This document shows positions 12,468-45,149 of a stretch of 64,000 nt of DNA, one piece after another (the first letter of the stretch is position 1; each line of letters starts with the position of its first letter). This DNA comes from Deltaproteobacteria bacterium. Its GTDB lineage: Bacteria > Myxococcota_A > Polyangia > JACPQR01. Position numbers and translations under genes: made by a program. The notes under the pieces are model-generated. The model saw only the letters and a list, made by a program, of their open reading frames with translations. It was not told where the DNA came from and searched no databases. The stretch lies in the NCBI GenBank assembly GCA_016190375.1, contig JACPQR010000184.1:1370-65369 (forward strand). The letters are read 5' to 3'.

Positions 12468-12870
12468 CGAAGCCACCAGTTGTGAAGGCACGAGAGGTCG
12501 TTGCGGCGCTGCGGCGAGCGGACTTCGCGGTCCACCACCAGACGGGAAGCCACGTGAGGCTCCGCCATCGCGACGGCCGGCGCGTCACCGTGCCGATGCA
12601 CGGTGGCGACGTCCCGCTGGGAACGCTCCGCCGGATCGCCGAACGGGCTGGAATCATGCCCATCCGGTTGCTTGCCAGACGCGGGCCCAACAGGCGACAG
12701 GCGACAGGCAACTGGCAGCCGCCGGACGCACGCGCTGCTCATCCGGGTCCGGAATTGCCCGTCGCCGGCTGCCTGTCGCCTGTTCAATCCCTGCCCGTCC
12801 GGATCCCGGCTTGGCAAGAAACCGGATGGGCATGGCTGGAATGACGGTGGACCAGCTCAGAGACCTCCTG
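12464..12870 (+). pseudogene. hicA: HicA family mRNA interferase toxin, interrupted near its 3' end by a MITE-like insertion
   Basis: QTGSHVRL...VTVPMHG...GTLRRI; removing the insert and one TSD copy restores ERAGMTVDQLRDLL. Confidence 0.8.
12655..12834. mobile_element. 180-bp MITE-like element, 23-bp TIR, 8-bp TSD GCTGGAAT
   Basis: Left CATGCCCATCCGGTTGCTTGCCA; right end reverse complement CATGCCCATCCGGTTTCTTGCCA; GCTGGAAT at 12647-12654 and 12835-12842. Confidence 0.9.
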
Positions 12871-12911
12871 CCGGCTCGTCCCCTCTGGCCCCAGGTCCCT
12901 CTCTGGTGCTC

Positions 12912-14744
12912 TCAACGAGCGGGGAGGGGCATCCGCGCTCGTACGATCGCGAGCGTCTCCTCGAGGAGCTGTCGTGCGCGCTTCTCGAGGTCGGCGACGG
13001 TGGCGCGCATCTGATCGACGTAGGCGGCGTCCTCGAGGCCGCCGAGGTTGATCAGCACGTTGAGGATGCCGCCCATCACGCCCGTGAAGGCGGCGAGGGC
13101 TCCGACTCCCGCGTCGCTCACCGAGCTGGCGTTGCCGGTTCGGCCGACGAGAAGCGCTGCCTCCATCGCGCGCAGGCTCCGCCGCGCGGTCTCGAGCGGG
13201 ACGCCGATCACGGCCTCGAGCTCCCGGTCCATCGCCGCCTTGCGCGCGGCTCGCTCTTCGACGGTGCCCTTCGGGAGACGCATCGCGCTCATGTAGCCGG
13301 AGAAGGCATTCGCGTCGGCGTCGACGGCTTCGAGCAGCCCATCCTTCAGCGCCTGGGCCTCCTCGGCGACCTGACGAAACTGGCCGAGCTCGTCCTTCGC
13401 CTTCCCGGCCGTCAGGTTCGCGACCATCGACGCCAGGGCGGCGCCCAGCGCGCCGGCGAGCGCGGCCACGGACCCACCGCCCGGCGCCGGCGACTCGCGC
13501 GAGACCTCGTGCACGAGGTCGTCGGTCTTCTTCTGGACGAGGGCTCCGGGATCGGCCTTCGGATAGCCCAGGACCTTCTCGCGGATGTCGAAGGCCTGGA
13601 CGTCGGCGAGTCCCATGGACTGCACCGCCGTCGCGAGGACGTCGTCCAGCGGGATGCCGGTCGAGCGTCCCTGCTTGCGAAGGTAGTGGCGGCCGGCCTC
13701 GACCATGGCGGGGAGCGGCACCAGGCCCACGATCTCGCTGCCCGTCACGACCAGGCCGCGCTCCGCCGCGAGCTCTCGCGCCTTGTCGAGGACCACGTGC
13801 GGCGGCGTCACGCGGTAGTCCGTCAGGTTGATCGAGATCTGGACACGGTCGTACTGCGGCACCTCCCACCCGATGGCGCGGCAGTGGTGGAAGAGACCCG
13901 GCTTGAGCGCGGAGGCGCCGATGAGGTTGCCCGGATCCTGGTCGTGCAGGCGGCACAGCTCCGCCAGGTCGTACTCGTGGGCGCCTTTCGTGTGGGCGAA
14001 GAGCTCGGCCGCGGTCTTCGCCTGGAGGTCGCACGAGCCGCAGAGGAATCGTCCCTCGGAGTGCTTGAGGACCTCGCCCCGGTAGTAGAAGGGCCTCGTC
14101 TCGCCGCGCCGCGCGGAGCGCCCCTTCTCGCGGAGCTCGAACGCGATGTCCGTCGCGTGGTCCTTGCAGCGCGAGTTGAGGTCGATGTTGTAGGCGATCA
14201 GGAACTCGCGGGCGCCGATCACGGTCGCGCCGGCGCGGGCGTTGAAGGTGGTCGGGCCGAAGTCGGGCCTCCACTGGGGGTCGGCCAGCTTCTCCGCGAG
14301 CCCCTCGTACTCGCCTCGGCGGATGTTCGCGAGGCTCCGGCGCTCCGGCCGCGTCGCGGCGTTCTCGTACAGGTAGACGGGGATGCCGAGCTGGTCGCCG
14401 ACCCGCTGGCCGAGCTCCCGCGCGAGGCGCGCGCAGTCCTCCATCGTGACGTCGCTCACCGGCACGAAGGGGCACACGTCGGTCGCGCCCATCCGCGGGT
14501 GCGCGCCCGAGTGCTTGCTCATGTCGATGACCTCGGCGGCCCTCGCGATGGCGCGGAACGCCGCCTCCTTCGCCGCCTCGGGGCTCCCCACGAACGTGAC
14601 GACCACCCGGTTCGTGTCGGCGCCGGGATCGACGTCCTTCAGCTCCGCGCCCTCCACCGACTCGATCGCGTCGGTGATCTGCTTGATGACGTTCCTGTCG
14701 CGTCCCTCCGAGAAGTTCGGGACGCACTCCACGAGCTTGGCCAT
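12912..14744 (-). CDS. ftcd: Glutamate formimidoyltransferase / formiminotetrahydrofolate cyclodeaminase
   Basis: LVECVPNFSEGR, HPRMGATDVCPF, GAREFLIAYN, C-terminal SPAPGGGSVAAL cyclodeaminase domain. Confidence 0.93.
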   Translation of the reverse strand: MAKLVECVPNFSEGRDRNVIKQITDAIESVEGAELKDVDPGADTNRVVVTFVGSPEAAKEAAFRAIARAAEVIDMSKHSGAHPRMGATDVCPFVPVSDVTMEDCARLARELGQRVGDQLGIPVYLYENAATRPERRSLANIRRGEYEGLAEKLADPQWRPDFGPTTFNARAGATVIGAREFLIAYNIDLNSRCKDHATDIAFELREKGRSARRGETRPFYYRGEVLKHSEGRFLCGSCDLQAKTAAELFAHTKGAHEYDLAELCRLHDQDPGNLIGASALKPGLFHHCRAIGWEVPQYDRVQISINLTDYRVTPPHVVLDKARELAAERGLVVTGSEIVGLVPLPAMVEAGRHYLRKQGRSTGIPLDDVLATAVQSMGLADVQAFDIREKVLGYPKADPGALVQKKTDDLVHEVSRESPAPGGGSVAALAGALGAALASMVANLTAGKAKDELGQFRQVAEEAQALKDGLLEAVDADANAFSGYMSAMRLPKGTVEERAARKAAMDRELEAVIGVPLETARRSLRAMEAALLVGRTGNASSVSDAGVGALAAFTGVMGGILNVLINLGGLEDAAYVDQMRATVADLEKRARQLLEETLAIVRARMPLPAR

Positions 14745-14816
14745 GACCCGGCGGAGGGTAGCACTCCGGTGTCAGATGCGCGCCGGATGCGTAGCGTGTA
14801 GCATGCCCGCCAGAGC

Positions 14817-17354
14817 ATGCGCTCCCGAGCCGTCGCGCTCTTCGCCGTCCTGTTCGCGGCACCCGCCGCCGCGCAAGAGGGCCTCGAGCCGCCCGAGCTC
14901 AGCTCGTTCGTCCACGCCGAGTACCCTCGCGAGGCAGAGTCGCTCGGGCTCGAGGCGGAGGTGGTCCTGCGGCTCGACGTCGACGCGACCGGAGCCGTGA
15001 CGGCGGTGGAGGTCGTGGAGCCGGCGGGCAACGGCTTCGACGAGGCCGCCCTGGCCGCGTGCCGAGCCTTCCGCTTCGACCCCGCCCGGCGCGGCGGCGC
15101 GCCGATCGCCTCGCGCATCCTGTACCGCTACCGCTTCACGCTCGAGGAGCTGGTCGAGCCCGCCGAACGCGAGCCGGAGCGGCCGCAGGTGTCGGAGCTG
15201 CGCGGTTGGGTCCTCGACCGCCTGGGCGAGCCGATCGAGGGCGCCCAGGTCATGCTCAGGGTAGCGGGGGCAGGGGAGGTCGGCGGGCGGGCCACGGACG
15301 ACACCGGCGCCTTCGCGTTCGACGAGCTGCCACCCGCTCAGTACGAGGTCGAGGTCGCGGCCGGGGGCTTTCGCGTGCTCCAGACCCGCGAGGTCCTGGC
15401 AGCGGGCGCCGAGCTTCGCGTCCGCTACCGGCTGCGCGAGGAGGGCGCGCGCTACGAGTCGGTCACGCGGTCGAGGGTCGCGATCGAGCGTGACGTGGTC
15501 CGCCGGACGCTTACGCCCGACGACATGCGCCGAGTCCCCGGGACCTCGGGCGATGCGCTGCAGGCGGTCCAGGCGCTCCCCGGGGTCGCGCGGCCTCCAT
15601 TCGCGCTGGGCTTGTTCATCGTCCGCGGCTCCGCGCCCGACGACACGCTGGTCCTGCTCGACGACCATCCGATCCCGCTGCCGTACCACCTGGGCGGCCT
15701 GGCGACCGTCGTGACGAGCGACCTCATCGAGAAGATCGATCTGCTGCCGGGTAGCTTCAGCGTGCGCCACGGACGCATCTCGGGCGGCGTCGTCGACGTC
15801 CAGCTCCGTACGCCAAGGCGCGACCGCATGCACGGTTTCCTCGACGTGGACCTCGTGGACGCCGGCGTCCTCGGCGAGGTGCCCCTCGGCGATCGCGGGG
15901 CCGTGGCCATCGCGGCGCGCCGCAGCTACATCGACGCGGTCCTCCCCGCGATCTTCCCCGACGACGCCGGCCTCGCGTTCACGCAGTTCCCCGTCTACTG
16001 GGACTACCAGGCGATCGCCGACTACGACATCTCCTCGGGCACGGGGCTCAGGGTCCTCGCGTCGGGCAGCGACGACGAGCTCGCGCTGCGGCTCGACGAG
16101 GCGGCCCAGAACGATCCGGCGATCCGCGGGAGCTTCAGCACCCACTTCGCCCACCAGCAGGTCCAGGCGCGACTGACGAGCCGGCTGGCGGGCGGGGCCA
16201 TCCACAGGTTCTCGCCCGCGCTGACCTGGAGCGTGACGGAGGGCGACGCGGGCCCTTCGATTCACTTCGACTTCGAGAGCCTGCTGGCGACGCTGCGCGA
16301 CGAGCTGGACGCGCCGATCGGCCCGCACGCACGGCTCCGGCTCGGCGTCGACGTGCAGACCGGCGCCATCGACACGAACGTGCGAGCTCCCCAGCCGCCC
16401 GACCCACGCGAGACCCAGAACCCCATCTACGGCCAGGAAGTGAAGTCCTACGACGACGAACGCTTCCTGACGAACATCGGGGCCTACGCGGAGCTGGCGC
16501 TCGAGCCCGCCGCGGGGCTTTCGCTGACGGCGGGGGCGCGGTTCGATCACCTGGGCCTGATCGGCGCGAACGTGGTCGACCCGCGAGCCGGCTTCCGCTG
16601 GCAGGCCCACTCGCGACTGGTGATGAAGGGGGGGCTCGGGCTGTACTCGCAGCCGCCTCGCGGATTCGAGGTCGTTCCCGGCTTCGGAAACCCGGACCTC
16701 GAGGCCGAGCGCGGCGTCCACTACACGATCGGGCTCGAGCACAAGCTGGCCGAGCCGGTCACGCTCGACGTCCAGCTCTTCGGAAAGAGCCTGGCGAACG
16801 CGGCGGCCCCGAGCGAGACGGAGGGCTTCGCCTCGACGGGGCTGGGGCGGACCGTCGGGCTCGAGACGATGCTGGTCTTCCGCCCGAGGCTGCCCGCGTT
16901 CGGGTGGATCTCGTACACGCTGTCGAAGAGCGAGCGTCGCGACGCTCCCGGCGAGCCGTACCGCCTCTTCGAGTACGACCAGACCCACATCCTGTCGGTG
17001 GTCGCGGGGACGATGCTGCCTGGCGGGTTCGAGCTCGGGTGCCGGCTGCGCTACGCGAGCGGCTTCCCGGAGACGCCCGTGGCCGGCGCCGTCTACGACG
17101 CGGACTTCGACGTGTATCGACCGCTGTCGGCCGCCTCGGGATCCTCGAGGATCCCGCCGTTCTTCTCCCTCGATCTGCGGCTGGCGAAGCGCTGGCGCGC
17201 CTGGGGCGCGCGCTGGACCCTGACCCTGGACGTCCAGAACGCCACGGTCCACTCGAACCCGGAGCGAAGGATCTACGCGTACGACTACTCGGACAGCACC
17301 TTCGCGACGGGCATCCCGATCCTACCAAGCCTCGGGCTGCGCGCCGAGATGTGA
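14817..17354 (+). CDS. TonB-dependent receptor with N-terminal TonB C-terminal-like and carboxypeptidase-regulatory-like domains
   Basis: YPREA...GFDEAALAA...FDPA; plug region PGTSGDALQAVQALPGVAR...VRGS; barrel with GNPDL. Confidence 0.88.
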   Translation: MRSRAVALFAVLFAAPAAAQEGLEPPELSSFVHAEYPREAESLGLEAEVVLRLDVDATGAVTAVEVVEPAGNGFDEAALAACRAFRFDPARRGGAPIASRILYRYRFTLEELVEPAEREPERPQVSELRGWVLDRLGEPIEGAQVMLRVAGAGEVGGRATDDTGAFAFDELPPAQYEVEVAAGGFRVLQTREVLAAGAELRVRYRLREEGARYESVTRSRVAIERDVVRRTLTPDDMRRVPGTSGDALQAVQALPGVARPPFALGLFIVRGSAPDDTLVLLDDHPIPLPYHLGGLATVVTSDLIEKIDLLPGSFSVRHGRISGGVVDVQLRTPRRDRMHGFLDVDLVDAGVLGEVPLGDRGAVAIAARRSYIDAVLPAIFPDDAGLAFTQFPVYWDYQAIADYDISSGTGLRVLASGSDDELALRLDEAAQNDPAIRGSFSTHFAHQQVQARLTSRLAGGAIHRFSPALTWSVTEGDAGPSIHFDFESLLATLRDELDAPIGPHARLRLGVDVQTGAIDTNVRAPQPPDPRETQNPIYGQEVKSYDDERFLTNIGAYAELALEPAAGLSLTAGARFDHLGLIGANVVDPRAGFRWQAHSRLVMKGGLGLYSQPPRGFEVVPGFGNPDLEAERGVHYTIGLEHKLAEPVTLDVQLFGKSLANAAAPSETEGFASTGLGRTVGLETMLVFRPRLPAFGWISYTLSKSERRDAPGEPYRLFEYDQTHILSVVAGTMLPGGFELGCRLRYASGFPETPVAGAVYDADFDVYRPLSAASGSSRIPPFFSLDLRLAKRWRAWGARWTLTLDVQNATVHSNPERRIYAYDYSDSTFATGIPILPSLGLRAEM

Positions 17355-17360
17355 GGGGGG

Positions 17361-18455
17361 CTACGGCAGGACGTTCACGGTCCCGTTCATGTCGATCGCC
17401 TCGTGGATCCGGCAGAAGTAGGGGACCGCGCCGGCCTGCGAGAAGGTGAAGTCGAACGTCTCGTTCGGCCCGAACGGATTCTCGTCGAAGAGGTCGCCCA
17501 CGTTCGGGGCGCTCGAGGACGCACCCGAGGTCACGGTATGGTCGAACGGGTCGCGGTTCACCCAGTGAACCGTGCCGCCCGCGTGGATCGTGACGACCTG
17601 GGGTACGAACTCGTTGTCTTCGAGCTCCACCGTCACCTCCTCCGGCGTGGGCGTGACGTCGCAGAACTCGTCGGGCAGAGCGCCCTGGCAGCCATAGCCC
17701 TCGTCGTCGCGGCAGTCCGCGTCGGTGGTGCAGATCGCTCTGCAAAAACGCTCCGCGCAGATCGAGCCGGCGGGGCACCCCGTCGTCGCCGAGCAGGCCT
17801 GCGTGCACTGTCCGCCCGGGTCCTCGGTGTCACACAAGCCGCTCTCGCAGTCCTCGTCGGCCCCGCACGCGTCGCCGATCGGCGCCCGCGGCTCCGGGGC
17901 CACGTCGCAGAACCGGTCGGGCGCGTCGCCCTGGCACGAGTACCCCTCCGCCTCGCGGCAGTCCGCGTCCACCTCGCACGCGCTGAAGCAGAGACCCTCG
18001 CTGCAGACCGCGCCGGTCGGACAGTCCGAGCTGTCCGTACAGACCTGAGTGCACTGGCCGCCCGGGTCGTCAGTGTTGCAGAGGTCGCTCTCGCAGCCCG
18101 AGTGGTCGCTGCACGGCGCTCCGATGGGCGAAGCCTCCTCGGGAGCCACGTCGCAGAAGCGATCGGGACCGCCACCCTGGCAGGAGTAGCCCTGACGGCA
18201 GTCGCCATCGGAGCTGCAAGCGCGGCGGCAGAGCGAGTCGGGGTCGCAGACCGCGCTCTCGCCGCACTCCTCGTCCGCGGCGCACTGCCTCGTGCACTGG
18301 CCCCCGAGGTCGTCCTGGTCGCAGTCGTTGCTCTCGCAATCGCCGTTCGACGAGCACGGATCGCCTATGCCCGCACGCTCGGGCTCGGGCTCACCCCCGC
18401 CGCCACCTCCGCAGGAAACGCACGCCACGGCTGCGACCAGTATTGCTCTGTTCAT
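17361..18455 (-). CDS. Cys-rich triple-repeat lipoprotein with C-terminal cupredoxin domain
   Basis: Lipobox-like ACVSC; three ~78-aa repeats with 12 Cys each; HTVT...YFCRIH...M type-1 copper ligands. Confidence 0.8.
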   Translation of the reverse strand: MNRAILVAAVACVSCGGGGGGEPEPERAGIGDPCSSNGDCESNDCDQDDLGGQCTRQCAADEECGESAVCDPDSLCRRACSSDGDCRQGYSCQGGGPDRFCDVAPEEASPIGAPCSDHSGCESDLCNTDDPGGQCTQVCTDSSDCPTGAVCSEGLCFSACEVDADCREAEGYSCQGDAPDRFCDVAPEPRAPIGDACGADEDCESGLCDTEDPGGQCTQACSATTGCPAGSICAERFCRAICTTDADCRDDEGYGCQGALPDEFCDVTPTPEEVTVELEDNEFVPQVVTIHAGGTVHWVNRDPFDHTVTSGASSSAPNVGDLFDENPFGPNETFDFTFSQAGAVPYFCRIHEAIDMNGTVNVLP

Positions 18456-18635
18456 CTCGACCCTCCGGGCGCCACGGCGCCTCGACCAACGTCCAGCAAG
18501 CGATGTGCCCACGAGGGGCCGGCCGGGCGTCATGCGAGAGCAGACTGAGCCCCGGAGCGCGCTTGCCCGCACGAGGCCGCCAGGCTACCGGATCGTCACG
18601 GCCGTGCGCACGGCCGGCGCGGTCGCGTCGCCGGA

Positions 18636-19100
18636 TCACCGGCCGGAGGATTTCACCCTGCGCTCGCCCGAGAGCTGCACGACGAGGTCGCGCTGGCGTG
18701 GCCTGTTGTCGAAGTCGATGAGCACGATCTGCTGCCACGTCCCCAGGAGGAGCTTTCCTTCTCGGAACGGCACCGCGAGCGAGCACCCGAGCATCGCGGC
18801 GCGGACGTGCGAGTGGCCGTTCCCGTCGTGCCACATCTCCTCGTGGTGGTAGCGAGCGGACCGCGGCGCGAGACGCTCGAACGCCGCGGGAATGTCCTGC
18901 AAGAGACCGGGCTCGTACTCGAGCGTCGTGACGCCCGCCGTGGAGCCCGGCACGAAGACGAGAGCCTGGCCCTCGACGAAGCGGTGCTCGTAGACGAGGG
19001 CCGCGACCTGCGTCGTGACGTCGACGATCTCCGCGTCGCCTCCCGTGCACACGCGCACCGTGTCCGTGACGAGCGCCATCGCGGTCCCTGGCTCGGCCAT
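18636..19100 (-). CDS. yjbQ: YjbQ/UPF0047 family (secondary thiamine-phosphate synthase) protein
   Basis: GSTAGVT..E, NGHSHVRA, LGTWQQI..DFD. Confidence 0.9.
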   Translation of the reverse strand: MAEPGTAMALVTDTVRVCTGGDAEIVDVTTQVAALVYEHRFVEGQALVFVPGSTAGVTTLEYEPGLLQDIPAAFERLAPRSARYHHEEMWHDGNGHSHVRAAMLGCSLAVPFREGKLLLGTWQQIVLIDFDNRPRQRDLVVQLSGERRVKSSGR

Positions 19101-19139
19101 GAGCCATCGTACTGCAACCTCCCGTAAGTCGGTGGCCGA

Positions 19140-21101
19140 TCACTCGACCAGGGACGCGACCAGAGCGCGAAGGGCCTGGGCGTCGAAGGGCTTCGGCAGC
19201 CGTATCACGTCCTCGCGATCGAGGAACTCGCGAGTCTGTGGCGTGAAGGCCCCGCCCGTCAGGAAGATCAGCCGGCGTACCACGTCGGGCGCGCGACCGC
19301 AGAGCTCCGCGTGAAGCTCGATCCCGCTCATCCCGGGCATGGACACGTCGCTCAGTACGACGTCGAAGTGCTTGCCGGCCAGGATCAGCTCGAGCGCCTC
19401 CGTGGCGCTGGTGAGCATCGTGACCTCGTGCGCGCCGCCGAGGATGCGCTGCACCGACCGACCGATCATCGGCTCATCGTCGACCACGAGGACGCTGCCG
19501 CGGCGAGCCGCGGCCCGGGGCGCTGCCTGGACGGCGTCCTCGATCGGAGCTCGTTCGGCGGCAGGGAGGATCACGCGGAAGACCGTGCCCGATCCCGGCT
19601 GGCTCTCGACGCCGATCTGTCCGCCCATCCGCCTGATGATCCCGTGGCAAACCGAGAGCCCGAGCCCCGTCCCCTCGCCGACCGGCTTGGTCGTGAAGAA
19701 GGGCTCGAAGATCCGTCCGAGGACCGCCGCCGGGATCCCGCAACCGGTGTCGCGGATCTCGACCACGGCCTCGCCGCCGGGACCGGTCTTCGTCACGATC
19801 CGGATCTCGTTCCTCTCGGGCTCCCCCTCGCGAATCGCCTGTGCGGCGTTGACCAGGAGGTTCAGGAAGACCTGGCCGAGGCGTGATTCGTCCCCGAGGA
19901 CCGGCGGAACGGCGCCGAAGTCGCGTGCGAGGTTCGCCCGGTGCCGCACCTCGTTGTGGACCATCCGGATGCTCACCTCGAGGACGCGGTGCAGGTCGAG
20001 CGGCTGGCGGCGCTCCTCGTCCGTGCGCGAGAAGGTCTTGAGCTCCCGGACGATGGTGCGGACACGATCGGCGCCGTGCATCGCCTCGTCGAGCGCCTCC
20101 TCGAGCTCTCGCATGTCCACGGTTCCGGGCGGCACCGCCGCTCTCAGGGTCGCCAGCGCATCGCGGACGAAATGGAGGTTCGCCAGGACGTATGCCAGCG
20201 GGTTGTTGATCTCGTGGGCGACCCCCGCGGCCAGCGCTCCGACCGAGGCCATGCGATCGGCCACGAGGAGCTTGGTCTGCATGCTCTTTCGTTCGCTGAT
20301 GTCCCTGACGGACGCGCAGTAGAGCTCTCGGCCGCCGAGCTCCAGGTGGCTCACCGTCAGCTCGACCGGGAAGACGCGGCCGTCCTTGGCGCGGTGCTGC
20401 GCCTCGTGGGATCCGGCGCTGGCGCGGGCATAGCACTCCTCGCGCTGCTCCGGCCACTTGTCGCGTGACAGCTCGGGCGCGATGTCGAAGATCGACATCG
20501 CCAGCAGCTCCTCGCGCTCGTAGCCGAGCGAGCGGCAGGCCGCCGCGTTCACATAGACGATCCGCCCGTCGGGCTCCATCCAGAGCGCGCCATCCGGTGT
20601 CTGCTCGATGTGAAGCTGCGCCAGGCGAAAATCGATCTCTGCTCGCTTGCGGTCCGAGATGTCGCGTATGAGGCAGAGGACCTCGTCGTCGCCCGAGCGG
20701 ACAATCCGGGCCTCTCGGTCGCGGGGCCGGCCCCCGACCGGGAGCTGATACTCGAACGACTGGACGCCTCCTTCGGTCGCGAGAGCTCGATCGATGGCGC
20801 ACAGGAAGAGGCTCGCCACGTCGACTGGCAAGACCTCCGAGAGCTTGCGGCCGACGAACACGGCGGGCGGCGCATACAGGTCGGGCTCTGGTGGCCCGCA
20901 GTAGTCGATGCAGGTCCCATTGCGGGCGATGCGGGCGACGAAGTCCGGGATCGCGGCGAGGAGGGCACGATGGCGCTCCTCGCTCCGGCGCGACGCGTCG
21001 AGGTCGGCGGCGTCGAGTCCCCCGCCGTCCTCGGAAGGTCCTTCCGCAATGCAGTCGTCCGCGAGGCCACGGCTGGTGCGCTCGGTCGGGTCGAGGCTCA
21101 T
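19140..21101 (-). CDS. PAS-PAS hybrid sensor histidine kinase with receiver domain
   Basis: HEINNPL, NLLVNA, DTGCG, FEPFFTTK, GTGLGL; REC VDDE...SDVSMPG. Confidence 0.92.
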   Translation of the reverse strand: MSLDPTERTSRGLADDCIAEGPSEDGGGLDAADLDASRRSEERHRALLAAIPDFVARIARNGTCIDYCGPPEPDLYAPPAVFVGRKLSEVLPVDVASLFLCAIDRALATEGGVQSFEYQLPVGGRPRDREARIVRSGDDEVLCLIRDISDRKRAEIDFRLAQLHIEQTPDGALWMEPDGRIVYVNAAACRSLGYEREELLAMSIFDIAPELSRDKWPEQREECYARASAGSHEAQHRAKDGRVFPVELTVSHLELGGRELYCASVRDISERKSMQTKLLVADRMASVGALAAGVAHEINNPLAYVLANLHFVRDALATLRAAVPPGTVDMRELEEALDEAMHGADRVRTIVRELKTFSRTDEERRQPLDLHRVLEVSIRMVHNEVRHRANLARDFGAVPPVLGDESRLGQVFLNLLVNAAQAIREGEPERNEIRIVTKTGPGGEAVVEIRDTGCGIPAAVLGRIFEPFFTTKPVGEGTGLGLSVCHGIIRRMGGQIGVESQPGSGTVFRVILPAAERAPIEDAVQAAPRAAARRGSVLVVDDEPMIGRSVQRILGGAHEVTMLTSATEALELILAGKHFDVVLSDVSMPGMSGIELHAELCGRAPDVVRRLIFLTGGAFTPQTREFLDREDVIRLPKPFDAQALRALVASLVE

Positions 21102-21267
21102 CGAGCTCGCCGGTAGTATCGCGTGCCAGCACGTGAGGCGGCAAGCTCCGCGAGCGACCTAGCGGCACTGGGCGATGTTCTCGATCGCGAGGTTCTCGAC
21201 TCGGTCGGTCCGCAGTACGCCACGCACCACGCCGGCGCGCGGTTCGCGCGAGGACGATCTCCGGCTC

Positions 21268-24356
<3,089 letters not shown>

Positions 24357-24357
<1 letters not shown>

Positions 24358-27172: not shown

Positions 27173-27185
27173 GGCGGTCGATCGC

Positions 27186-28528: not shown

Positions 28529-28536
28529 CGGGGCGT

Positions 28537-28572
28537 AGAATGGTCGGCCAAATTCCGACTGTCAATCGGAAT
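28537..28572 (-). promoter_or_regulatory. Promoter and palindromic operator of the blaI-like operon
   Basis: TTGACA (28565-28560)-17 bp-CATTCT (28542-28537); inverted repeat ATTCCGA-N7-TCGGAAT (28552-28572) straddles the -35. Confidence 0.65.
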
Positions 28573-29423: not shown

Positions 29424-29425
29424 GG

Positions 29426-32471: not shown

Positions 32472-32507
32472 GCGACTGATAATAGAATCGCCAGACCCGC
32501 CCTGCAA
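32465..32507 (-). promoter_or_regulatory. Leaderless promoter and putative TetR operator of the hlyD-ABC-tetR operon
   Basis: TTGCAG-17 bp-TATTAT, 7 nt before ATG 32471; inverted repeat TTATCA-N6-TGATAA (32465-32482) over the -10 and start codon. Confidence 0.6.
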
Positions 32508-32554
32508 CGTTTTTCGCCTCGGAGCCGCCCAAGAGGTGTCGAATAGGCTCCGAA

Positions 32555-34809: not shown

Positions 34810-34813
34810 CCGG

Positions 34814-35770: not shown

Positions 35771-35836
35771 CGCCACACCCGGATAGCACGCGCCCCCCCC
35801 TTTCGCGAAACGCGGCGGCGGAGTACCAATCGGGAC

Positions 35837-38064: not shown

Positions 38065-38123
38065 CTCGCCGCGTCATCCGCTCCATCGCGGCCTCCGTTT
38101 GCCCGAAATTCCGCTTGCACCGC

Positions 38124-38154
38124 TTGACGCGTTGCGTTATACGCATTGCGTCAA
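38124..38154. promoter_or_regulatory. 31-bp imperfect palindrome (putative operator) just before the SD
   Basis: TTGACGC GTTGCGT TAT ACGCATT GCGTCAA followed by AAGGAGG. Confidence 0.6.
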
Positions 38155-38168
38155 AAGGAGGCCAACAC

Positions 38169-38561
38169 ATGGAAGAGCTCGTTTCGAGGATCGAGGAGAC
38201 CGGCCACAACGTGAAGGAGCAAGGCGAGTCCTTCGTGACCGCGACCCGCCATGCCGGGCTGGCCTTCGCAAAGGAGACCCGGCGCGCCAGTACGGACCTC
38301 TTCGGAGCGGCCCGCGCGGAAGCGACGAGCTGGAGGCGCTTCCTGCAGAGCCGGGTCGCTCGGCGGATCCGCCGGCTAGCCGCGGCGCGGGATCTCGAGC
38401 GGCGCTTCCTGGCGCGTCTCGACAGGGCCATCGTCCGCCTCGGCCGCCGCGTGCGCGCGCGCCTCGCGAGGCTCGAAGGCCGCCGGGCCCCCGCGAGGGT
38501 CAGGCGGGGGGCCCCTCGGCGGGCCGCTCGCACGAGGAAGGCGGCCGCGGCGCCGGCGTAG
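38169..38561 (+). CDS. Small basic helical protein, possibly phasin/PhaF-like with Arg/Ala/Pro-rich tail
   Basis: Strong SD; amphipathic helices; tail RRAPARVRRGAPRRAARTRKAAAAPA. Confidence 0.6.
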   Translation: MEELVSRIEETGHNVKEQGESFVTATRHAGLAFAKETRRASTDLFGAARAEATSWRRFLQSRVARRIRRLAAARDLERRFLARLDRAIVRLGRRVRARLARLEGRRAPARVRRGAPRRAARTRKAAAAPA

Positions 38562-38567
38562 ACGCCA

Positions 38568-38630
38568 GTGTACCGAAGGAGACCCCCGGCTCCGCCGGGG
38601 AGGCAACCACCGTTCGACATCTGCCGGAGC
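38568..38630. mobile_element. Hairpin resembling an IS200/IS605-type end (orphan; may act as terminator)
   Basis: GAGACCCCCGGC-TCC-GCCGGGGAGGCA; family resemblance is from memory only; no tnpA nearby. Confidence 0.4.
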
Positions 38631-38645
38631 ACCGCGCGAGTTTGA

Positions 38646-38725
38646 ACGTGGACGTATACGTGGTCGTGGACGTGGACGATCCGGATTCGGGCTCGACCAC
38701 GACCACGACCACGACAACGACCACG
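38646..38725. repeat. Inverted hexamer arrays (GTGGWC)n ... (GACCAC)n
   Basis: acgtggacgtatacgtggtcgtggacgtggacg ... tcgaccacgaccacgaccacgacaacgaccacg. Confidence 0.85.
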
Positions 38726-38956
38726 GCTACGAACCGACCGAACCCGCGCGCGAGCTGGGTGTCGACAAGGGCCGTAGCCCGGTGCCGTCGCGAGGCGGTG
38801 CTGCGCGGCCCCGCCCGCGCGAAGCGCCGGTTCCCCTTCGCACGCGGTGAAGCAAGGCTCGATCTCTCCCTCGAGGCACGAGGGGTCGAACGGTCTGGCT
38901 GGACCTGGGACGACCGGACCCTTCCCGACCGAGCTTGCATGGCTCACACTTCCGTC

Positions 38957-39616
38957 ATGCAGGCTCCGTCGCGCACAACGCTCGCTGCCTTCGCGCTCGC
39001 AGTTGGCTGCTCATCTGGTCCGCCTGCTCCTCCGGCGCCCGGCCTGGCTGCCCGACCGACCTCGGCGCCGATGCCCCCGGTCCCGACGGTGGGCGGCGTC
39101 CCGAGCCCATCTGCCGGCCCGGTGGCGCTGCCCGCGCCGACCCCCCTTCTGGGCACGGAGCAAGGCCCGCCGGCCGGATACGTGACGATGCGGGCGCTCC
39201 GGGTCGCCGCGACTCCGCAGGGCGCCGCCGTGCTCCTCGTCGACGCCGCCGGCGCCAAGGTCGTTCCGATCTTCATCGGCGACGGCGAGGCCCTGTCGAT
39301 TCACCTGCGCCTCTCGGGCCGGCGGGCCCAGCGCCCGCTGACGCACGACCTCATGGACTCGACGCTGCGCGAGCTAGGCGCTCGTCTCGTCCACGTCCGA
39401 GTCGACCGCATCGAGGGCGGCGTGTTCTTCGGGACCGTCGTGTTGCAGCAGGGCCCTCGCGCGATCGCCATCGACGCCCGCCCCTCCGACGCCATCGCGC
39501 TGGCTGTCGGCAATGCCGTTCCGATCCACGTCGCCCCTGCCGTGATCGCCGAGGCCGGTCTCGGCGCCGAGGCGCTCGATGCGCCCCCGGCGCCCGAGCC
39601 TCGCCAGACTCTCTAG
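38957..39616 (+). CDS. Bifunctional nuclease (DUF151) domain protein with lipoprotein-like signal and Pro-rich linker
   Basis: VPIFIGDGEA, RPLTHDL, IDARPSDAIALA; N-terminal LAVGC. Confidence 0.85.
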   Translation: MQAPSRTTLAAFALAVGCSSGPPAPPAPGLAARPTSAPMPPVPTVGGVPSPSAGPVALPAPTPLLGTEQGPPAGYVTMRALRVAATPQGAAVLLVDAAGAKVVPIFIGDGEALSIHLRLSGRRAQRPLTHDLMDSTLRELGARLVHVRVDRIEGGVFFGTVVLQQGPRAIAIDARPSDAIALAVGNAVPIHVAPAVIAEAGLGAEALDAPPAPEPRQTL

Positions 39617-40080
39617 CACCGAACGGTTTGAAAATGCCGTGATGACGGCGCCCTCCGAACCTTCGCGCTTTCAGCACGGGGGAAGGTGAACGTGGTCGTC
39701 GACGTGGTCGTGGTCGTGGTCGGGCACGCCTCGCCAGCAACAGGGCCCGGTCGCCCGTCGACAACGGGCCATGCAAGACGAACCGCTCCTCGCCTACGAA
39801 CGCCTCGACGCCTACGCGGTGTGGCGGAGCGGTGCTGGATGCGTTGAAGGTCATGGGGCTCGTGGCACCCGAGACCGCGCGCGTGACACGAGTGCGGATC
39901 GTTCGTGTGGTGCAGATGCTGTCGCGAATGTGCCGGTAACCGCTCCCGCAGCCAACATGCGGGGGGGCCGACCACGACCACGACCACGTCGACGTTCACG
40001 ACGACGGCGCAACCGCGTCAGACCGTTGCGACGAGGGCGCCGATGGCCGCGCAGTCGCGAAGGTTTCAAACCGGCCGGTG
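39617..40080. mobile_element. 464-bp non-autonomous element with 17-bp TIR and CTAG duplication
   Basis: CTAG CACCGAACGGTTTGAAA ... TTTCAAACCGGCCGGTG CTAG; internal (GTGGTC)n 39686-39722 and (GACCAC)n 39968-39999. Confidence 0.85.
39771..39939 (+). pseudogene. Internally deleted four-helix-bundle protein gene (23S-IVP/Avd-like family)
   Basis: MQDEPLLAYERLDAYAV then, in another frame, CGGAVLDALKVMGL...RIVRVVQMLSRMCR*. Confidence 0.7.
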
Positions 40081-41754
40081 CTAGTCCCCGCCGCCGCGAG
40101 CCCGCCGTCGCAGCGCGAAGGCCAGCACCGCAGCCAGGACGATCGCCGCCTCCGTGCTCTGCTTCGAGGTCATGCCCGCATGCCGGCACGCGCAGCTCGC
40201 AGTGTCGTCGCCTTCGCCCGCAGATCCCGGTCCGCCGTCGCCTTCGCCGCCAACGCCTCCGTCGGCTCCGGGATCGCCGGGTCCCACGCATCGGCCACCG
40301 CTGCAAGCTTGGCCGTCCGGGCACCGCGCGCCCTCGCACGAGTCCACGCACGATCCATCCTCGCAATGCGCGCCCGCCTCGCACCCGTCCGGGCACGAGG
40401 GGTCGACGCACTCGCCCGTCGCGGTGTCGCAGTCCAGCCCCGCCTCGCAGACCACGCCGTTGCACTGGCCGCAGCCCGAGAAGCAGATCCCCTCGCGGCA
40501 GACCTCGCCCTGAGCGCACTCGGCTCCCTCGCAGGGATCGACGCAGGCTCCGAGGCGACAACTTCGGCCCCAGGGGCAGACCACGTCCTCGCAAGGCGTC
40601 ACGCACTCCCCGGCCCGGCACACCGAGTCCGGCGGGCACGACTGCCCCTCGCAGCCCGGATCGACGCACAGGCCGGAGCTCGAGTCGCAGACCGTCTCCA
40701 CGGTGCAGTCGAACTCGTTGACGAGGACGCAGTCCGGCACGCAGCGACCGTCGTGGCAGATCTGCTGGTCCGGGCAGGTCGCGCCGTCGTCGAGCTCGCC
40801 GTCGCAGTCCGTGTCGAGGCCGTCGCACTGTTCGGGCTCGGGCGAGAAGAGCTCCTGGCAGACGACCTGGCCGACCTCGCACGCCGTGACACCAAACGCG
40901 CAGGTGCCGGTCAGACCCGTGTCGCACGAGGTGCCGCCCCCCGAGCACTCGACGCCCTCGACGCTGGTGACCAGGTCGGTGAAGTCGTTGTTGCTCCCGC
41001 CGTAGATGTCCTCCCACGCGAAGTAGAACTTCCGCTCCGTCACGTGGCTGTCGTAAATGAGGAGGTGGATGTACGAGTCGGGGCCGTTCTGATCCGGGTT
41101 GAAGGAGCGCTCCGAGTAGTAGACGTACCCATCTCCCTGCGCCAGGCGGTCGATGGACGCGCAGCAGTTTCCGCCCGCGCAGCTCCCGCCCGCCGAGTGC
41201 GACTCCGGCGTGAAGAGGAAGAACCCGACGTCGCCGCCCGCGTAGTCGGGCTCGTTCGCGATGTCCAGCACCACGGAGCTGCCCGGGGCATCGTCACAGT
41301 CGAGCATCGGATGCAGATCCTCCGGCTCGGGCGCGCTGCCGGTCACGTTGTACCAGCCGAACACGTCGTCGAAGAGCGCCGTGCCGCGCGTCAGGAGCGT
41401 GAACGTCAGCGCGCAGGTCGGCCGGAAGGTCTCGGGCGTCACGGAGGCCTCGGCGACCGGATCGAGCCCGCTCACGTTCGACGGGATGCACGTGTTGTCG
41501 TTGAAGCTGTGCCACATCGTGGTCTCGCACACGGCGTTCTGCCCGTCGTCGCAGGGACCGTCCTCGGTGGGGCAGACCTCGCCGATGTTGCACACGCCCG
41601 CCTGGTCGCATGCGCAGGCGAAGGTCGCAGCCAGCCCCGTGGGCCGCCCGGCGTCGCAGCCCGGTGGCGTGGGGATGGTCACGCCGTTCGGCTGATCGAG
41701 CGCGACGGCGGCCGCGGGCCAGGATGCTGCAAGTACGACGATCAGCTTGCGCAT
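40081..41754 (-). CDS. Secreted Cys-rich protein with MYXO-CTERM-like tail (DUF4114-like core)
   Basis: Signal peptide; FAWEDIYGGSNNDFTD; Cys-rich repeats; SCAC...hydrophobic-RRR tail. Confidence 0.75.
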   Translation of the reverse strand: MRKLIVVLAASWPAAAVALDQPNGVTIPTPPGCDAGRPTGLAATFACACDQAGVCNIGEVCPTEDGPCDDGQNAVCETTMWHSFNDNTCIPSNVSGLDPVAEASVTPETFRPTCALTFTLLTRGTALFDDVFGWYNVTGSAPEPEDLHPMLDCDDAPGSSVVLDIANEPDYAGGDVGFFLFTPESHSAGGSCAGGNCCASIDRLAQGDGYVYYSERSFNPDQNGPDSYIHLLIYDSHVTERKFYFAWEDIYGGSNNDFTDLVTSVEGVECSGGGTSCDTGLTGTCAFGVTACEVGQVVCQELFSPEPEQCDGLDTDCDGELDDGATCPDQQICHDGRCVPDCVLVNEFDCTVETVCDSSSGLCVDPGCEGQSCPPDSVCRAGECVTPCEDVVCPWGRSCRLGACVDPCEGAECAQGEVCREGICFSGCGQCNGVVCEAGLDCDTATGECVDPSCPDGCEAGAHCEDGSCVDSCEGARCPDGQACSGGRCVGPGDPGADGGVGGEGDGGPGSAGEGDDTASCACRHAGMTSKQSTEAAIVLAAVLAFALRRRARGGGD

Positions 41755-41782
41755 GATTCTGTCTCTCCAGTCCGGCGCCACG

Positions 41783-43711
41783 TCAACGCGTCGCGAGGAC
41801 GAGGCCGCCCCGCGGCGGAATCGAGAGCGGCGCGGTCACGTCGGCTTCGCCCAGGAGGTCGCGGTACTCGCCGGCCGGCAGCCCATCGGCCCCCGCGGGC
41901 GAGTCCGAGCGGTTCAGCGCCACCCACAGGACGTCCCCTCCGGCGCTCATCTCGTGAACGAGCACGTCGTTCGACGCGCCCAAGGGCCTCCGCGTCCCGC
42001 GCCGTGCCGCGGGGTGGTCGGCCCGGATTCGCGCGAGTCGCGAGATCCGATCGCGCAGCCACTCCTGGTCGGCCCCGAGGCCCTCCCACTGCATCGGGCG
42101 CCGGTTGTCCGGATCGCCCGCGCCGCTCATCCCGATCTCGTCGCCATAGTAGATCAGCGGGACCCCGGGCATCGTCATGAGCAGCGTGTACGCGAGCGCG
42201 ACCCTCTCGAACGGGTCGGGGCTCGAGGGCAGGGACGGCTGGTTCTCCCAGCCGCGATCCTTCCCGCTGTCCCACTCCCCGAACTGCGGCGAGCTCTCGG
42301 CGAGGTGAATCGCGCGGGGCAGGTCGTGGTTCCCGAGGAACGTCCCCATGATCGCTCCGGCCCCGTAGTAGTCGGCGTTCCCGCCGAGGAACGCGTCGAG
42401 ATCCGCCATGCGATCGAGCCGCATGAGGATCGTCCTCGCGACCTGGGCGCGCAGCGGAAAGTCGAACTGGCCATCGAGCTTCGTCGCGGGATCGACGTAC
42501 CGCCGCATCAGGTCGCGGTCCCCCGTGAACGTCTCGCCGATCATGTAGAAGTGCCGGTCGTCCGTCTCGACCTCGGCCCCCGTCTGGGCACGCAGATCGG
42601 TCAGCCACGAGTCCTCGATGTGCTTGACGGCGTCCAGCCGATAGCCGTCTATGCCGGTGTCCCGGATCCACTGGATCGCGTTCCCGACCGAGAACGCCCT
42701 GGCGTCCGCGTTCCGGAAGTCGAAGTCGGGCAGGTAGTCGCGGAACCAGCAGCGCAGGCGCTCGGGCTCTGCGTCCCAGGAGCAGCCATATCCGCAGACG
42801 CACCCGTCGAGCGGCCAGAACCAGTCCGGGTGGTCGGCGTAGACGGGGCTGTCCTGGTGCACGTGGTTCATGACGTAGTCGAGGACGATCTTCAGGTCGG
42901 CGGCGTGTGCGGCGTCCACGACCGCTCTCAGAAGGTCCAGGTCGCCCACGCGCGGCTCGACCTCGTCCATCCGGGTCGGCCAGTAGCCATGATAGGCGGC
43001 GTAGCTCCGCCCGTCCTCGCCGACCCCCGCCCGATCGGCGTTGTCGACGGGCGAGCTCAGCCACAGCGCGTTCACGCCCAGGTCCGTGAAGTAGCCGTCC
43101 TCGATCTTCTGCCGCACGCCCTCCAGGTCGCCTCCCCGGTAGTTGGCGACGGCCTCGACCTCGGCGACGGCGGAGTCGTTCGCCGGGTCGCCGTCGAGGA
43201 ACCTGTCGAGGAGGACGAAGTACATCACCGCGTCGCGCCAGTCGAACGACGTGGGAGGCGCATCGCAGCCGCAGCTCACCCGCCGTACCGAGTTGTAGCC
43301 GCCGTAGCCGTCGGGCTCGCGGTCGGGGTTCTCCGGATCCTCGATCCACTCGCCGCCGTTCACGAGGAACTTGTAGTGGACGACCTGCCCGTCCTCGAGA
43401 TCGAGCGTAGCGACGAACCGGTCCCCGCTCTGGACCATCGGGACGCCGACCTCCCAGCCGTCCGCGCGAAAGTCCCCGCGTAGCTCCGCGCTCGTCCTCC
43501 CCTCGCCCGCGAGGGAGAACTCCACCTCGCAGCTCGCGCAGGGATCGCCTCCCGAGTCGCGTCCGGCGGCGTCGCGACCCTCCGCTTCGGCGTCCGCTCC
43601 GGCGTCCTGGGCGGGCCCACCGGAGTCGGACCCGCCGGCTCCCGTAGCGCAGGCCGCGGCGACGCAGGCAAAGGGCAGAAACGCGACAGCTCCCGTGGCC
43701 CTCGACACCAT
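41783..43711 (-). CDS. GH13 alpha-amylase family lipoprotein with CBM48-like domain
   Basis: DYVMNH, GYRLDAVKH, IGET, GNHD; YKFLVNGGEW; lipobox AAC. Confidence 0.9.
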   Translation of the reverse strand: MVSRATGAVAFLPFACVAAACATGAGGSDSGGPAQDAGADAEAEGRDAAGRDSGGDPCASCEVEFSLAGEGRTSAELRGDFRADGWEVGVPMVQSGDRFVATLDLEDGQVVHYKFLVNGGEWIEDPENPDREPDGYGGYNSVRRVSCGCDAPPTSFDWRDAVMYFVLLDRFLDGDPANDSAVAEVEAVANYRGGDLEGVRQKIEDGYFTDLGVNALWLSSPVDNADRAGVGEDGRSYAAYHGYWPTRMDEVEPRVGDLDLLRAVVDAAHAADLKIVLDYVMNHVHQDSPVYADHPDWFWPLDGCVCGYGCSWDAEPERLRCWFRDYLPDFDFRNADARAFSVGNAIQWIRDTGIDGYRLDAVKHIEDSWLTDLRAQTGAEVETDDRHFYMIGETFTGDRDLMRRYVDPATKLDGQFDFPLRAQVARTILMRLDRMADLDAFLGGNADYYGAGAIMGTFLGNHDLPRAIHLAESSPQFGEWDSGKDRGWENQPSLPSSPDPFERVALAYTLLMTMPGVPLIYYGDEIGMSGAGDPDNRRPMQWEGLGADQEWLRDRISRLARIRADHPAARRGTRRPLGASNDVLVHEMSAGGDVLWVALNRSDSPAGADGLPAGEYRDLLGEADVTAPLSIPPRGGLVLATR

Positions 43712-43773
43712 GCGCACCTCCCGCGCGCCGCTTAGCAAGAACGCCCGGCTACTTCAAGGGCAGGCGACATCAC

Positions 43774-44001
43774 GGGTGCGTTGCACGGTCCCGGCTTTCG
43801 CCAGTCGTAGACGTAGACGTGGTCGTGGTCGTGGTCGTGGACTTTGACGGCGACGACTGCGTGGACGTCGGCGGCCCACGTTTGACGCGACCAGCCCCGC
43901 GTCAACCGGGGAGCGTCCAGGTCCACGTCCACGTCGCCGTCAAGGTCCACGTCAACGGCGACGGCGACGACCAGCGAAACCCCGGACCGTGCAAGGCACC
44001 C
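43774..44001. mobile_element. 228-bp MITE-like element, ~35-bp imperfect TIR, 9-bp TSD CGACATCAC
   Basis: GGGTGCGTTGCACGGTCCCGGCTTTCG... / ...CGAAACCCCGGACCGTGCAAGGCACCC; TSD at 43765-43773 and 44002-44010; internal inverted hexamer arrays. Confidence 0.9.
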
Positions 44002-44006
44002 CGACA

Positions 44007-44930
44007 TCACCGGCGCCGCAGCCGCTCGAGGACCTCGCGGAAGTCGTCGGGCGGCGGCTCCTGGAAACGCATCGCTTTCCCGGTGCGTGGATGGACGAAA
44101 CCGAGGACCTCGGCGTGCAGCATCGGCCGAGGTGCCTCGATTCGAGGCCCCTCGAAGGCGCGGACGTAGACGCGCTCGCCGACCAGGGGGTGGCCCGACT
44201 CGCTCAGGTGGATTCGGATCTGGTGCTGCCGGCCCGTCTCGAGCCTGCACGAAACGAGCGTCGCGCCTCGCAGGCGCTCGATCGGCGACACGTGCGTGAT
44301 CGCGCGCCGGGCGTCCGCGGGCGGCCGTCCCCGTGCAGGCCGGAACACGCCCCACGAGCCACGCAGCCCGTCGCCCCGGTCCCGCACCAGCAGGGTGTCC
44401 ATCGTCGCCTCGCGGACCTCGCCGTGGGCGATCGCCAGGTAGCGCCTCTCTACCGAGTGTCGCCTGAACTGCCGGTCGAGCTCTCGCTTCGCGGCGAGCG
44501 TCCGGGTGAAGACCAGGAGCCCGGTCGTGTCCTTGTCGAGGCGCTGCACCACCCCGAGCTGCGGGTCGTAGCGGCCGCCCCCCCGCCTGAGCGCTGCGCG
44601 CGTGAGGTCGACGAGCGTGTCCTTCTCGCCGGGCTCGAACGGGACCGTCATGCAACCGGCGGGCTTGCGCACGACGACGACCTCGGCGTCCGAGTGGACG
44701 ATCGCGTCGGGCGGCAGGGTCCCTGCCCGCCGGCGCGGCCCGCGCGGCTCGACCTCGACGGTGCTGCCGGCATGGAGCCGCCGGGCGGAGTCGAGCTCGA
44801 CCTCGCCGTCCACGAGCACGCGCCCGCTCGAGCACAGCTCGCGCGCGCGGGTCCACGGCGTGCCCGGCAGCGCCTTTCGCAACGCCGCCGCGACGGTGCA
44901 TGCCTCGGTCAGCTCGAGACGAGCCGTCAG
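44007..44930 (-). CDS. RluA family pseudouridine synthase with S4-like N-terminus (start uncertain)
   Basis: KPAG, QRLDKDTTG, LETGRQHQIR.H, LHA..LGF.HP. Confidence 0.9.
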   Translation of the reverse strand: MTARLELTEACTVAAALRKALPGTPWTRARELCSSGRVLVDGEVELDSARRLHAGSTVEVEPRGPRRRAGTLPPDAIVHSDAEVVVVRKPAGCMTVPFEPGEKDTLVDLTRAALRRGGGRYDPQLGVVQRLDKDTTGLLVFTRTLAAKRELDRQFRRHSVERRYLAIAHGEVREATMDTLLVRDRGDGLRGSWGVFRPARGRPPADARRAITHVSPIERLRGATLVSCRLETGRQHQIRIHLSESGHPLVGERVYVRAFEGPRIEAPRPMLHAEVLGFVHPRTGKAMRFQEPPPDDFREVLERLRRR

Positions 44931-45103: not shown

Positions 45104-45149
45104 CGAGCTGTCCTCCGGCTGGCGAGCCATTGTAAAACAAAGCCACTCG

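Follow-up and report, generated by a model that had tools for sequence, protein, structure and literature searches.

Hairpin cassettes of short tandem repeats and four-helix-bundle genes in probable non-autonomous transposons of a Polyangia genome

Introduction

Intervening sequences (IVSs) of 23S rRNA that bear an open reading frame (ORF), such as the helix-45 IVS of Coxiella burnetii with S23p and those of Leptospira, are the closest described counterparts of the elements considered here, and passages of PMC4990558 describe both their design and the cleavage of their stems by RNase III. The likeness lies in a small ORF of the same family (PF05635/TIGR02436) in the loop of a long stem of complementary termini, in a size of ~0.4-0.75 kb and in a suspected selfish and mobile nature, the same passages including, in the Discussion, 'remnant of a transposition event' and 'mobile element' as ideas that are listed untested. 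The present analysis concerns a window of 64,000 nucleotides, the whole stretch of DNA analysed, which corresponds to C151:1370-65369 (JACPQR010000184.1) of a metagenome-assembled genome (MAG) from the class Polyangia comprising 7.82 Mb in 247 contigs, 88% complete and with 70.4% G+C. Four loci within the window, 12655-12834 (L1), 38624-38746 (L2), 39617-40080 (L3) and 43774-44001 (L4), have arms of short tandem repeats facing one another in inverted orientation, and L3 encloses the remnant of a gene of the four-helix-bundle (4HB) 23S-rRNA-IVS protein family (TIGR02436/PF05635). With a probability of about 70%, the four loci are non-autonomous cut-and-paste transposons, L2 being a bare remnant, that have an IVS-like hairpin cassette as an internal module.

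The cassettes differ from rRNA IVSs in lying between or at the ends of protein genes, in having stems of tandem 6-8-base units and in residing inside elements bounded by terminal inverted repeats (TIRs) with 8-9-bp duplications, and RNase III cleavage is suggested for them by analogy only. There was no 23S rRNA gene match in the MAG, all four loci stand beside protein genes rather than as helix 9, 25 or 45 IVSs, and no Rfam match was obtained in four related loci.

Their outer ends resemble those of transposase-less insertions. Mobile insertion cassettes (MICs) such as MIC231, which has IS231 ends, carry a passenger gene and miniature inverted-repeat transposable elements (MITEs) carry none, and both have inverted ends of insertion sequence (IS) type, target duplications and no transposase, presumably being moved in trans. 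The concept of mobile insertion cassettes is cited in a passage of PMC2266710. What sets the present elements apart is that the passenger is always of one kind, a hairpin-wrapped small gene, occurring within several end types and at very high copy number.

Three other kinds of dispersed repeat invite comparison. Repetitive extragenic palindromic (REP) sequences, their hairpin-forming doublets (REPINs) and REP-associated tyrosine transposases (RAYTs) likewise combine dispersed palindromes, gene-less hairpins and a small gene flanked in inverted orientation; assignment to that system was rejected in view of the target duplications and TIRs present and of enclosed genes belonging to the 4HB or GxxExxY families rather than coding for a Y1/HUH transposase, no search aimed at RAYT having been made. 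Correia elements of Neisseria, also MITEs, give rise to hairpin transcripts that RNase III cleaves, and the short tandemly repeated repetitive (STRR) sequences of heterocystous cyanobacteria are dispersed tandem heptamers of unexplained origin, reportedly with a unit CAACAGT that resembles the CAACAGG unit found here. Neither is known to enclose a 4HB or GxxExxY gene within inverted arrays. In literature outside the subscription journals, no account was found of 4HB or GxxExxY cassettes with repeat arms, or of transposons that carry them.

Results

Matches to the 4HB family in the MAG numbered 17 by PF05635 and 20 by TIGR02436, many of them at contig ends. At C162:7994-8552, a complete 559-bp TIR pair with the GGGTGCAG... 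end encloses a 4HB gene between arms, in the order TIR, (GTGGAC)n arm, leader with ribosome-binding site, intact 113-aa 4HB gene (TIGR02436 65.2 bits against a cut-off of 24), complementary arm beginning 20 nt past the end of the gene match, and TIR, with a near-perfect 9-bp duplication (ATCAGCGA[T/C]) on the flanks. A second element in C174 (~57339-58093, ends read from the printed sequence) is ~755 bp long, has a 4HB gene with an internal TAG between (GTTGRC)n arms of 68 nt at 88%, and is flanked by a perfect 9-bp duplication, ATCGGCCTT. Both elements combine a passenger gene, IS-type ends and a duplication with the lack of a transposase, as mobile insertion cassettes do, and both, together with L3, have the complementary stem around an S23p/PF05635 ORF that marks an IVS. 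Beyond these two, a 21-nt degenerate pattern for the GGGTGCAG-type end matched the genome 47 times against 0 for the control; the termini displayed each have different, A/T-rich flanks, and most lie <350 nt from a contig end and, where the sequence suffices, lead inward to an arm and gene. Roughly 20 or more transposase-less 4HB-carrying copies, collapsed by the assembler, are therefore estimated. Solo ends at C51, C92 and C65:5233, considered as bounding alternative cargos, appear to be chance matches or broken ends. An original prediction, made from the letters of the window, had proposed a repeat-arm and four-helix-bundle cassette in miniature elements that decays to arm-only forms, and the intact 4HB gene of C162 between tandem-repeat arms inside a TIR- and duplication-bounded element, together with the C174 element and the ~47 termini of that type, bears out the first part of that proposal.

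The decay it envisaged is also seen within this one TIR family, which runs from the ~755-bp C174 element and the 559-bp C162 element with its intact gene, through a deletion remnant in C172, to a gene-less 254-bp copy at C110:6329-6582 in which the two arms abut. Gene remnants were scored with a local 4HB profile built on 15 relatives, for which the best score among 300 random stretches in six frames was 5.9 bits; the C172 and C239 remnants reached 11.9 and 10.7 bits, and that of L3 19.9 bits. A curated NCBIfam model gave no match among the four remnant peptides tested, including L3, and a heptamer-arm candidate remnant at C24:2068-2340 (4.9 bits by the local profile) was not above random and was not counted.

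All four loci of the window were checked by an inverted-repeat scan and by direct reading of the sequence. L3 (39617..40080, + strand, 464 bp) has 17-nt TIRs, CACCGAACGGTTTGAAA and TTTCAAACCGGCCGGTG, between two CTAGs, and its hexamer arms (39691-39730 and 39961-40000, 40 nt at 88%) enclose a 4HB gene from which the middle has been deleted. From a start at 39771 on the + strand, the remnant begins with the N-terminal YERLDAY, continues in another frame and closes with the C-terminal 36 codons up to the stop at 39936-39938, these last 36 residues being 44% identical to the intact C162 copy (pairwise E 1e-8); the deleted four-helix-bundle gene predicted between the arms is supported by these features and by the profile score. 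A single 2521-nt metagenome contig spans 38780-41300 with zero differences. On its two sides a bifunctional-nuclease-domain gene (38939-39616) and a DUF4114 gene (40081-41781) converge on the element, and their stop codons lie in the CTAG copies: the left copy (39613..39616) contains the TAG at 39614-39616, and the right copy (40081..40084) contains the CTA at 40081-40083 that is the reverse-strand stop. Without L3, 38939-39616 and 40081-41781 would end on one palindromic CTAG with a TAG stop on both strands, the CTAG duplication having preserved the stops of both genes. An alternative reading of the flanks is a TA duplication with G...C element ends; considered as a MITE, L3 has its 17-nt TIRs and a duplication, CTAG or TA, known from a single case. 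A further CTAG-flanked family was observed at C36:29788-30159, C188:8340-8698 and C208:34153-34505; its ends, of ...CAGRTYCGGCCAGG type, enclose heptamer arms together with a spacer that is conserved, measures 154-186 nt and contains no recognisable gene. In the C208 member one of the two flanks is CTAA instead of CTAG.

L1 and L4 are arm-only elements. L1 (12655..12834), examined by repeat scan, BLAST, folding and TIR-pair analysis, is a 180-bp MITE with 23-nt TIRs at 12655-12677 and 12812-12834 (96% complementary), inner arms of RACAGGC heptamers at 12689-12717 and 12756-12784 (29 nt, 83%), and 8-bp target duplications, GCTGGAAT, read at 12647..12654 and 12835..12842. It was inserted directly after the last codon of the HicA domain in ORF 12464-12844, and this HicA-toxin-domain ORF reads ~60 codons through L1 to a stop in the second target-duplication copy. 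L4 (43774..44001) is a 228-bp MITE with TIR GGGTGCGTTGCACGG... and hexamer arms, its TIRs being the ends of a palindrome at 43774-43854 and 43921-44001 (81 nt, 74%; repeat scan), and a 9-bp target duplication, CGACATCAC, was read at 43765..43773 and 44002..44010. Its neighbours on either side are a gene of the alpha-amylase family and one for a pseudouridine synthase (44007-45803), and the right duplication holds the reverse-strand stop of the latter (44007-44009). By BLAST within the genome there are 12 near-full copies of L1 and 19 of L4, with partial matches, many at contig ends, that amount to dozens for the two together. Complete TIR pairs of L1 type have identical flanking 8-mers in 4/10 cases and 8-mers one base off in 3 more, and those of L4 type have identical 9-mers on both sides in 7/14. 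Nested insertions were also found, with an L1 copy within an L4 copy at C19 and an L4 copy within a hexamer array at C82. L1 and L4 accordingly present TIRs, duplications of constant length, many copies, unrelated flanks and no internal transposase, as MITEs do, and both are multi-copy and mobile; single-copy TIRs had been part of the outcome named as fatal to the prediction.

L2 is a hairpin of hexamer arms (38647-38685 and 38687-38725, 39 nt at 79%; repeat scan) at the core, 38624..38746, of a four-copy repeat whose other copies are in C65, C112 and C240; it has no terminal inverted repeat beyond the arms, its flanks are mosaic, and three of the four copies have a common flank. RNA folds were compared with 100-200 dinucleotide shuffles per locus, and z-scores of -7.61 for L1, -7.16 for L2, -6.46 for L3 and -11.29 for L4 were obtained, no shuffle folding as well in any case. 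The predicted facing arms at four loci, the three TIR pairs with three kinds of flanking duplication, and the potential to fold end to end into long hairpins were all upheld. The facing (GTGGTC)/(GACCAC) repeats claimed for L4 were upheld only in the existence of the palindrome: the left (GTGGTC)4 run has no (GACCAC)n partner, the right arm consists of GTCCAC/GTCGCC/GTCAAC units, and the (GTGGTC)4 part pairs only in a G..G.C register. About 30 nt of non-periodic sequence is common to the arms of L4 and of C174-type elements (own reading of printed sequences), and because of this stretch the most plausible place for L4 is in a sister lineage of the C174-type elements, as an arm-only form. A reading of the arms as CRISPR arrays was discarded, the units being contiguous 6-8-mers without spacers.

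Arm types and end types are combined in more than one way. Ends of L1 type contain heptamer arms in 9/10 pairs, and the C239 element has L1-type ends with (GTGGTC)n hexamer arms, a 4HB remnant and an 8-bp duplication, CTCCCGAG; ends of L4 type contain hexamer arms in 11/14 pairs and heptamer arms in 3/14, two of those three with perfect 9-bp duplications. The heptamer module, including the loop-edge motif TCCGGAATTGCC, occurs inside both L1-type and L4-type ends. The shared cargo architecture across unrelated insertions that had been proposed is therefore real, in that one TIR type occurs with different arm types and the reverse.

Association of the arms with small genes was assessed across the genome, where a scan gave 895 local inverted-repeat loci, 251 of them with repeat-like arms by a loose measure, and where (GTGGTC)3 with <=1 mismatch had 47 matches against 0 for the reversed control pattern. 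A loose bracketing criterion, passed by 114/1500 random windows, was replaced by stricter or score-based criteria. Under the strict criterion, which 1/3000 random windows passed, 5/12 testable 4HB or GxxExxY matches were bracketed; the seven failures were one truncated copy and all six testable members of a C14-type 4HB subfamily. This third 4HB subfamily has ~12 partial or complete copies (C14:36614-37590, C61, C65:67208-68217, C99 and C124) built from a one-sided (GAGSCC/GTGRCC)n tract, a 229-nt leader palindrome and the gene, and an inverted arm is missing downstream. The genome has a single full GxxExxY gene (C47:13915-14489, TIGR04256, 135 bits), which lies between perfect 26-nt octamer arms, and a partial GxxExxY match at C174:48527-48752 also lies between octamer arms, a total of 2/2, the arms being inverted (GGAAGGCG)n. 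GxxExxY proteins are presumably of nuclease fold, as their family is annotated; the match computed here is to the family alone. Shorter octamer-arm hairpins, whose spacers measure 16-176 nt, are scattered through the genome in large numbers.

Candidate transposases were found for two of the end types. ISKra4 is placed in the Mutator-like p-MULT 4 group of DDE transposases in a passage of PMC3942029. NCBIfam-defined members of the ISKra4 family adjoin the L1-type end in the MAG and lie within GGGTGCAG-type ends in a genome of the same class (G164), whereas the window elements carry no transposase. In C221 of the MAG, 41/41 nt of the L1 end occur ~125 nt upstream of the presumed ATG of an ISKra4-family transposase gene (224.5 bits), and at G164:C378 a 1.7-kb IS with GGGTGCAG ends, both of which match the 21-nt degenerate pattern with one mismatch each, carries an ISKra4-family transposase (209.3 bits, cut-off 205). 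The two transposases are 22% identical. By these matches, the two end types appear to trace to two distant lineages of one transposase family, ISKra4, and the predicted involvement of several transposase families was not borne out, L1-type and GGGTGCAG-type ends both adjoining transposases of that family. The gene with an L1-type left end is represented at C221:53245-55564 and C101:1-900. Its frame may be broken near 54927-54939, the sequence remains conserved for >500 nt downstream, and a hairpin made of 11-base units (GGATGTGGACGGGCTGCGGACGG) has been inserted. Four DDE_Tnp_1 matches in the genome were rejected as cognate transposases, their ends being different, and no TIR pair of any of the four end types spans >559 bp in the assembly.

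In other genomes, the nearest of which are of the same class only, bracketing was examined with a gapless test and a null percentile as threshold; one of the searches for 4HB loci used a single protein and gave 6 loci. Of 29 non-edge 4HB loci, 12 exceeded the 99.5th percentile of the null with their bracketing inverted repeats, and 11 of the 12 lay above the null maximum; the 12 thus have the IVS-like complementary stem around the ORF, and they include a Planctomycetia MAG and a 44%-GC MAG. Arm units elsewhere are mutually unrelated (AGGCTTC, GGGCCTC, CCGGTC, CTAGGAC, GTGGAC, ATAGCTC and others). Two side observations concern arrangements of a different kind. Pairs of convergent 4HB genes with overlapping stops occur at L035 (G028:C6, 1350-2290) and at six further places in G028; every gene has a perfect leader hairpin that takes in its ribosome-binding site, and (CTGRCR)n tracts flank the pair in direct orientation. 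The contigs of L040 and L044 come from a MAG labelled Klebsiella pneumoniae, which looks wrong for DNA of 65-67% G+C; they have a 4HB gene with a (CCCGAT)n tract on one side and a (GGGAGC/GGGTC)n tract, unequal in period, on the other.

DNA runs containing the window were four in number, from one study labelled groundwater metagenome, and were available as Logan contigs only; among the runs listed as containing it there is no RNA run. Summed contig depth in the hexamer-arm bins 38687-38873 and 43736-44100 was 10-100x that of neighbouring bins in two of the metagenome runs; arm-like sequences are therefore very abundant in the groundwater community, possibly in other organisms too. No joint precisely removing L2, L3 or L4 was found in the contigs of the four runs, and the joints listed have sides of 20-31 nt within the repeat arms and may stem from other copies. 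Elsewhere in the window, a 51-nt inverted repeat at 52671-52721 and 53714-53764 is 78% complementary, with arms 992 nt apart that are not repeat-like.

Discussion

The cassette would thus consist of two inverted arms of short tandem units, complete copies of which enclose a leader and a small 4HB gene (TIGR02436/PF05635). The elements that contain it would be moved in trans by Mutator-like DDE transposases of the ISKra4 family, the gene would be lost by deletion between the arms to leave MITEs such as L1 and L4 and the L2 hairpin, and arm modules may be swapped by recombination within repeat arrays or by a mobility of the cassette itself. The DNA side of this scheme, with MIC and MITE elements mobilised in trans and gene loss between arms, is well supported. 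The original wording, that the cassette is captured by or inserted into miniature elements, holds as far as the mixing of modules goes; the cassette may have entered miniature elements, as it implies, or these may have arisen by deletion from gene-carrying transposons.

Several observations weigh against reading the loci as transposons with this cassette as their module. On the side of mobility, the 88%-complete MAG yielded no complete autonomous element whose ends match on both sides, the ISKra4-family gene in C221 has no right end before the contig end, no transposase was found in the genome for L3 or L4 ends, no empty site or excision joint was seen in the metagenome contigs, and the L3 TIRs pair only once in the assembly, unlike the many copies of a MITE. 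On the side of the cassette, 17/29 loci in other genomes had no bracketing arms by the gapless test, the repeat tracts around the convergent gene pairs of G028 are direct rather than inverted, none of the six testable C14-type 4HB members has bracketing inverted arms, and the link of the L1 heptamer arms to a 4HB gene in the MAG is only inferential. Several C174-type gene copies have internal stops, and the cargo therefore need not be functional. For the stem, compensatory double changes were seen in 0/67 predicted pairs of the L4 family, and among arm mismatches on the gene-sense strand, G-U-type changes (16) are not clearly commoner than A-C-type ones (9).

An alternative is that the hairpin cassette is itself the primary mobile unit, needing no TIRs and landing repeatedly in unrelated miniature transposons. 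Most cassettes in other genomes indeed have no outer ends or duplications and stand exactly at gene junctions, the stop and start codons of the neighbouring genes touching or falling in the arms at L011 and lying in the arms at L010; the presence of the same heptamer module with TCCGGAATTGCC in two end types and the annotation of the GxxExxY cargo as a nuclease fold, assumed from the family match, point the same way. However, no insertion signature of a bare cassette was found, whether a duplication of its own or an empty MITE that belongs to the same family and lacks exactly the cassette, the deletion series in one TIR family accounts for arm-only forms by no extra mechanism, and recombination in shared repeat arrays could also swap modules, which together make a self-moving cassette unlikely as the explanation of the four loci.

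What the arms do is a separate matter. If transcribed, the stem of 25-80 bp could form a double-stranded RNA cut by RNase III, as in ORF-bearing 23S rRNA IVSs, and by the same analogy such cutting could allow the cassette to be tolerated at gene ends and inside operons and could free a small mRNA from read-through transcripts. An RNase III-processed stem is the best guess, albeit one with the odds against it, because the cassette is polar and its cargo is homologous to the ORF of IVSs excised from rRNA by RNase III: the 3' arm starts 0-48 nt after the gene match in 12/13 4HB cassettes measured, and the 5' arm stands 9-208 nt upstream. The MAG has an RNase III gene. The lack of a wobble bias together with the lack of covariation means that nothing points specifically to an RNA-level role, and the arms might instead act as DNA, as cruciforms or single-strand hairpins in slippage, recombination or recognition by a hairpin-binding transposase, as with REP/RAYT and IS200/IS605, the RNA hairpin being a by-product. 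That mismatches are not biased towards one strand (16 vs 9) would fit such a role, as would arms that differ by whole units between copies, the outcome expected of slippage; it is nevertheless improbable, given classical TIRs and 8-9-bp duplications, which hairpin-dependent Y1 transposases are understood not to make, and the close spacing of the 3' arm behind the gene, which suggests a design at the level of the transcript. It is scarcely credible that the arrangement arose by convergence, with palindromic MITEs in a 70%-GC genome gaining tandem arms by slippage and L3 trapping a 4HB gene by chance. In favour of convergence, codon-like period-3/6 repeats are common in the genome, loose criteria bracketed 114/1500 random windows and L4 has no compensatory covariation; against it, strict criteria separate 1/3000 random windows from 5/12 gene matches, the arms of L4 and of gene-carrying C174-type elements are homologous, gene-carrying copies number roughly 20 or more, and other genomes, some from other phyla, repeat the layout with units that are quite different.

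A broader idea, tentative and rather doubtful, is that the tandem-armed hairpin and its 4HB or GxxExxY gene form a selfish module that is old and independent, with the ORF-bearing 23S rRNA IVS as its rRNA-resident form. Such a module would use MITEs and ISs of several lineages as vehicles and would hop among these and gene junctions by its own hairpin-dependent route, its fast-changing units would keep the two arms mutually specific, and its gene-less relics would make up much of the unexplained excess of dispersed 6-8-base tandem repeats in bacteria. A figure legend in PMC10910872 names '23S rRNA IVP', apparently in a panel on proteins linked to CRISPR arrays, and a guess is that repeat arms explain that listing.

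The origin and spread of ORF-bearing rRNA intervening sequences have been open questions since about 1990. The gene-in-stem design is found here on bona fide transposons, with inverted ends, duplications, dozens of copies and a decay series, which would provide one way for the design to move around genomes, and, as these transposons come with clonable candidate transposases, the question of mobility is directly testable. The findings also tie two very large uncharacterised families, 4HB (TIGR02436) and GxxExxY (TIGR04256), to dispersed short tandem repeats, and they are a warning to annotators that many 'MITEs', repeat arrays and MAG contig breaks may be relics of such cassettes.

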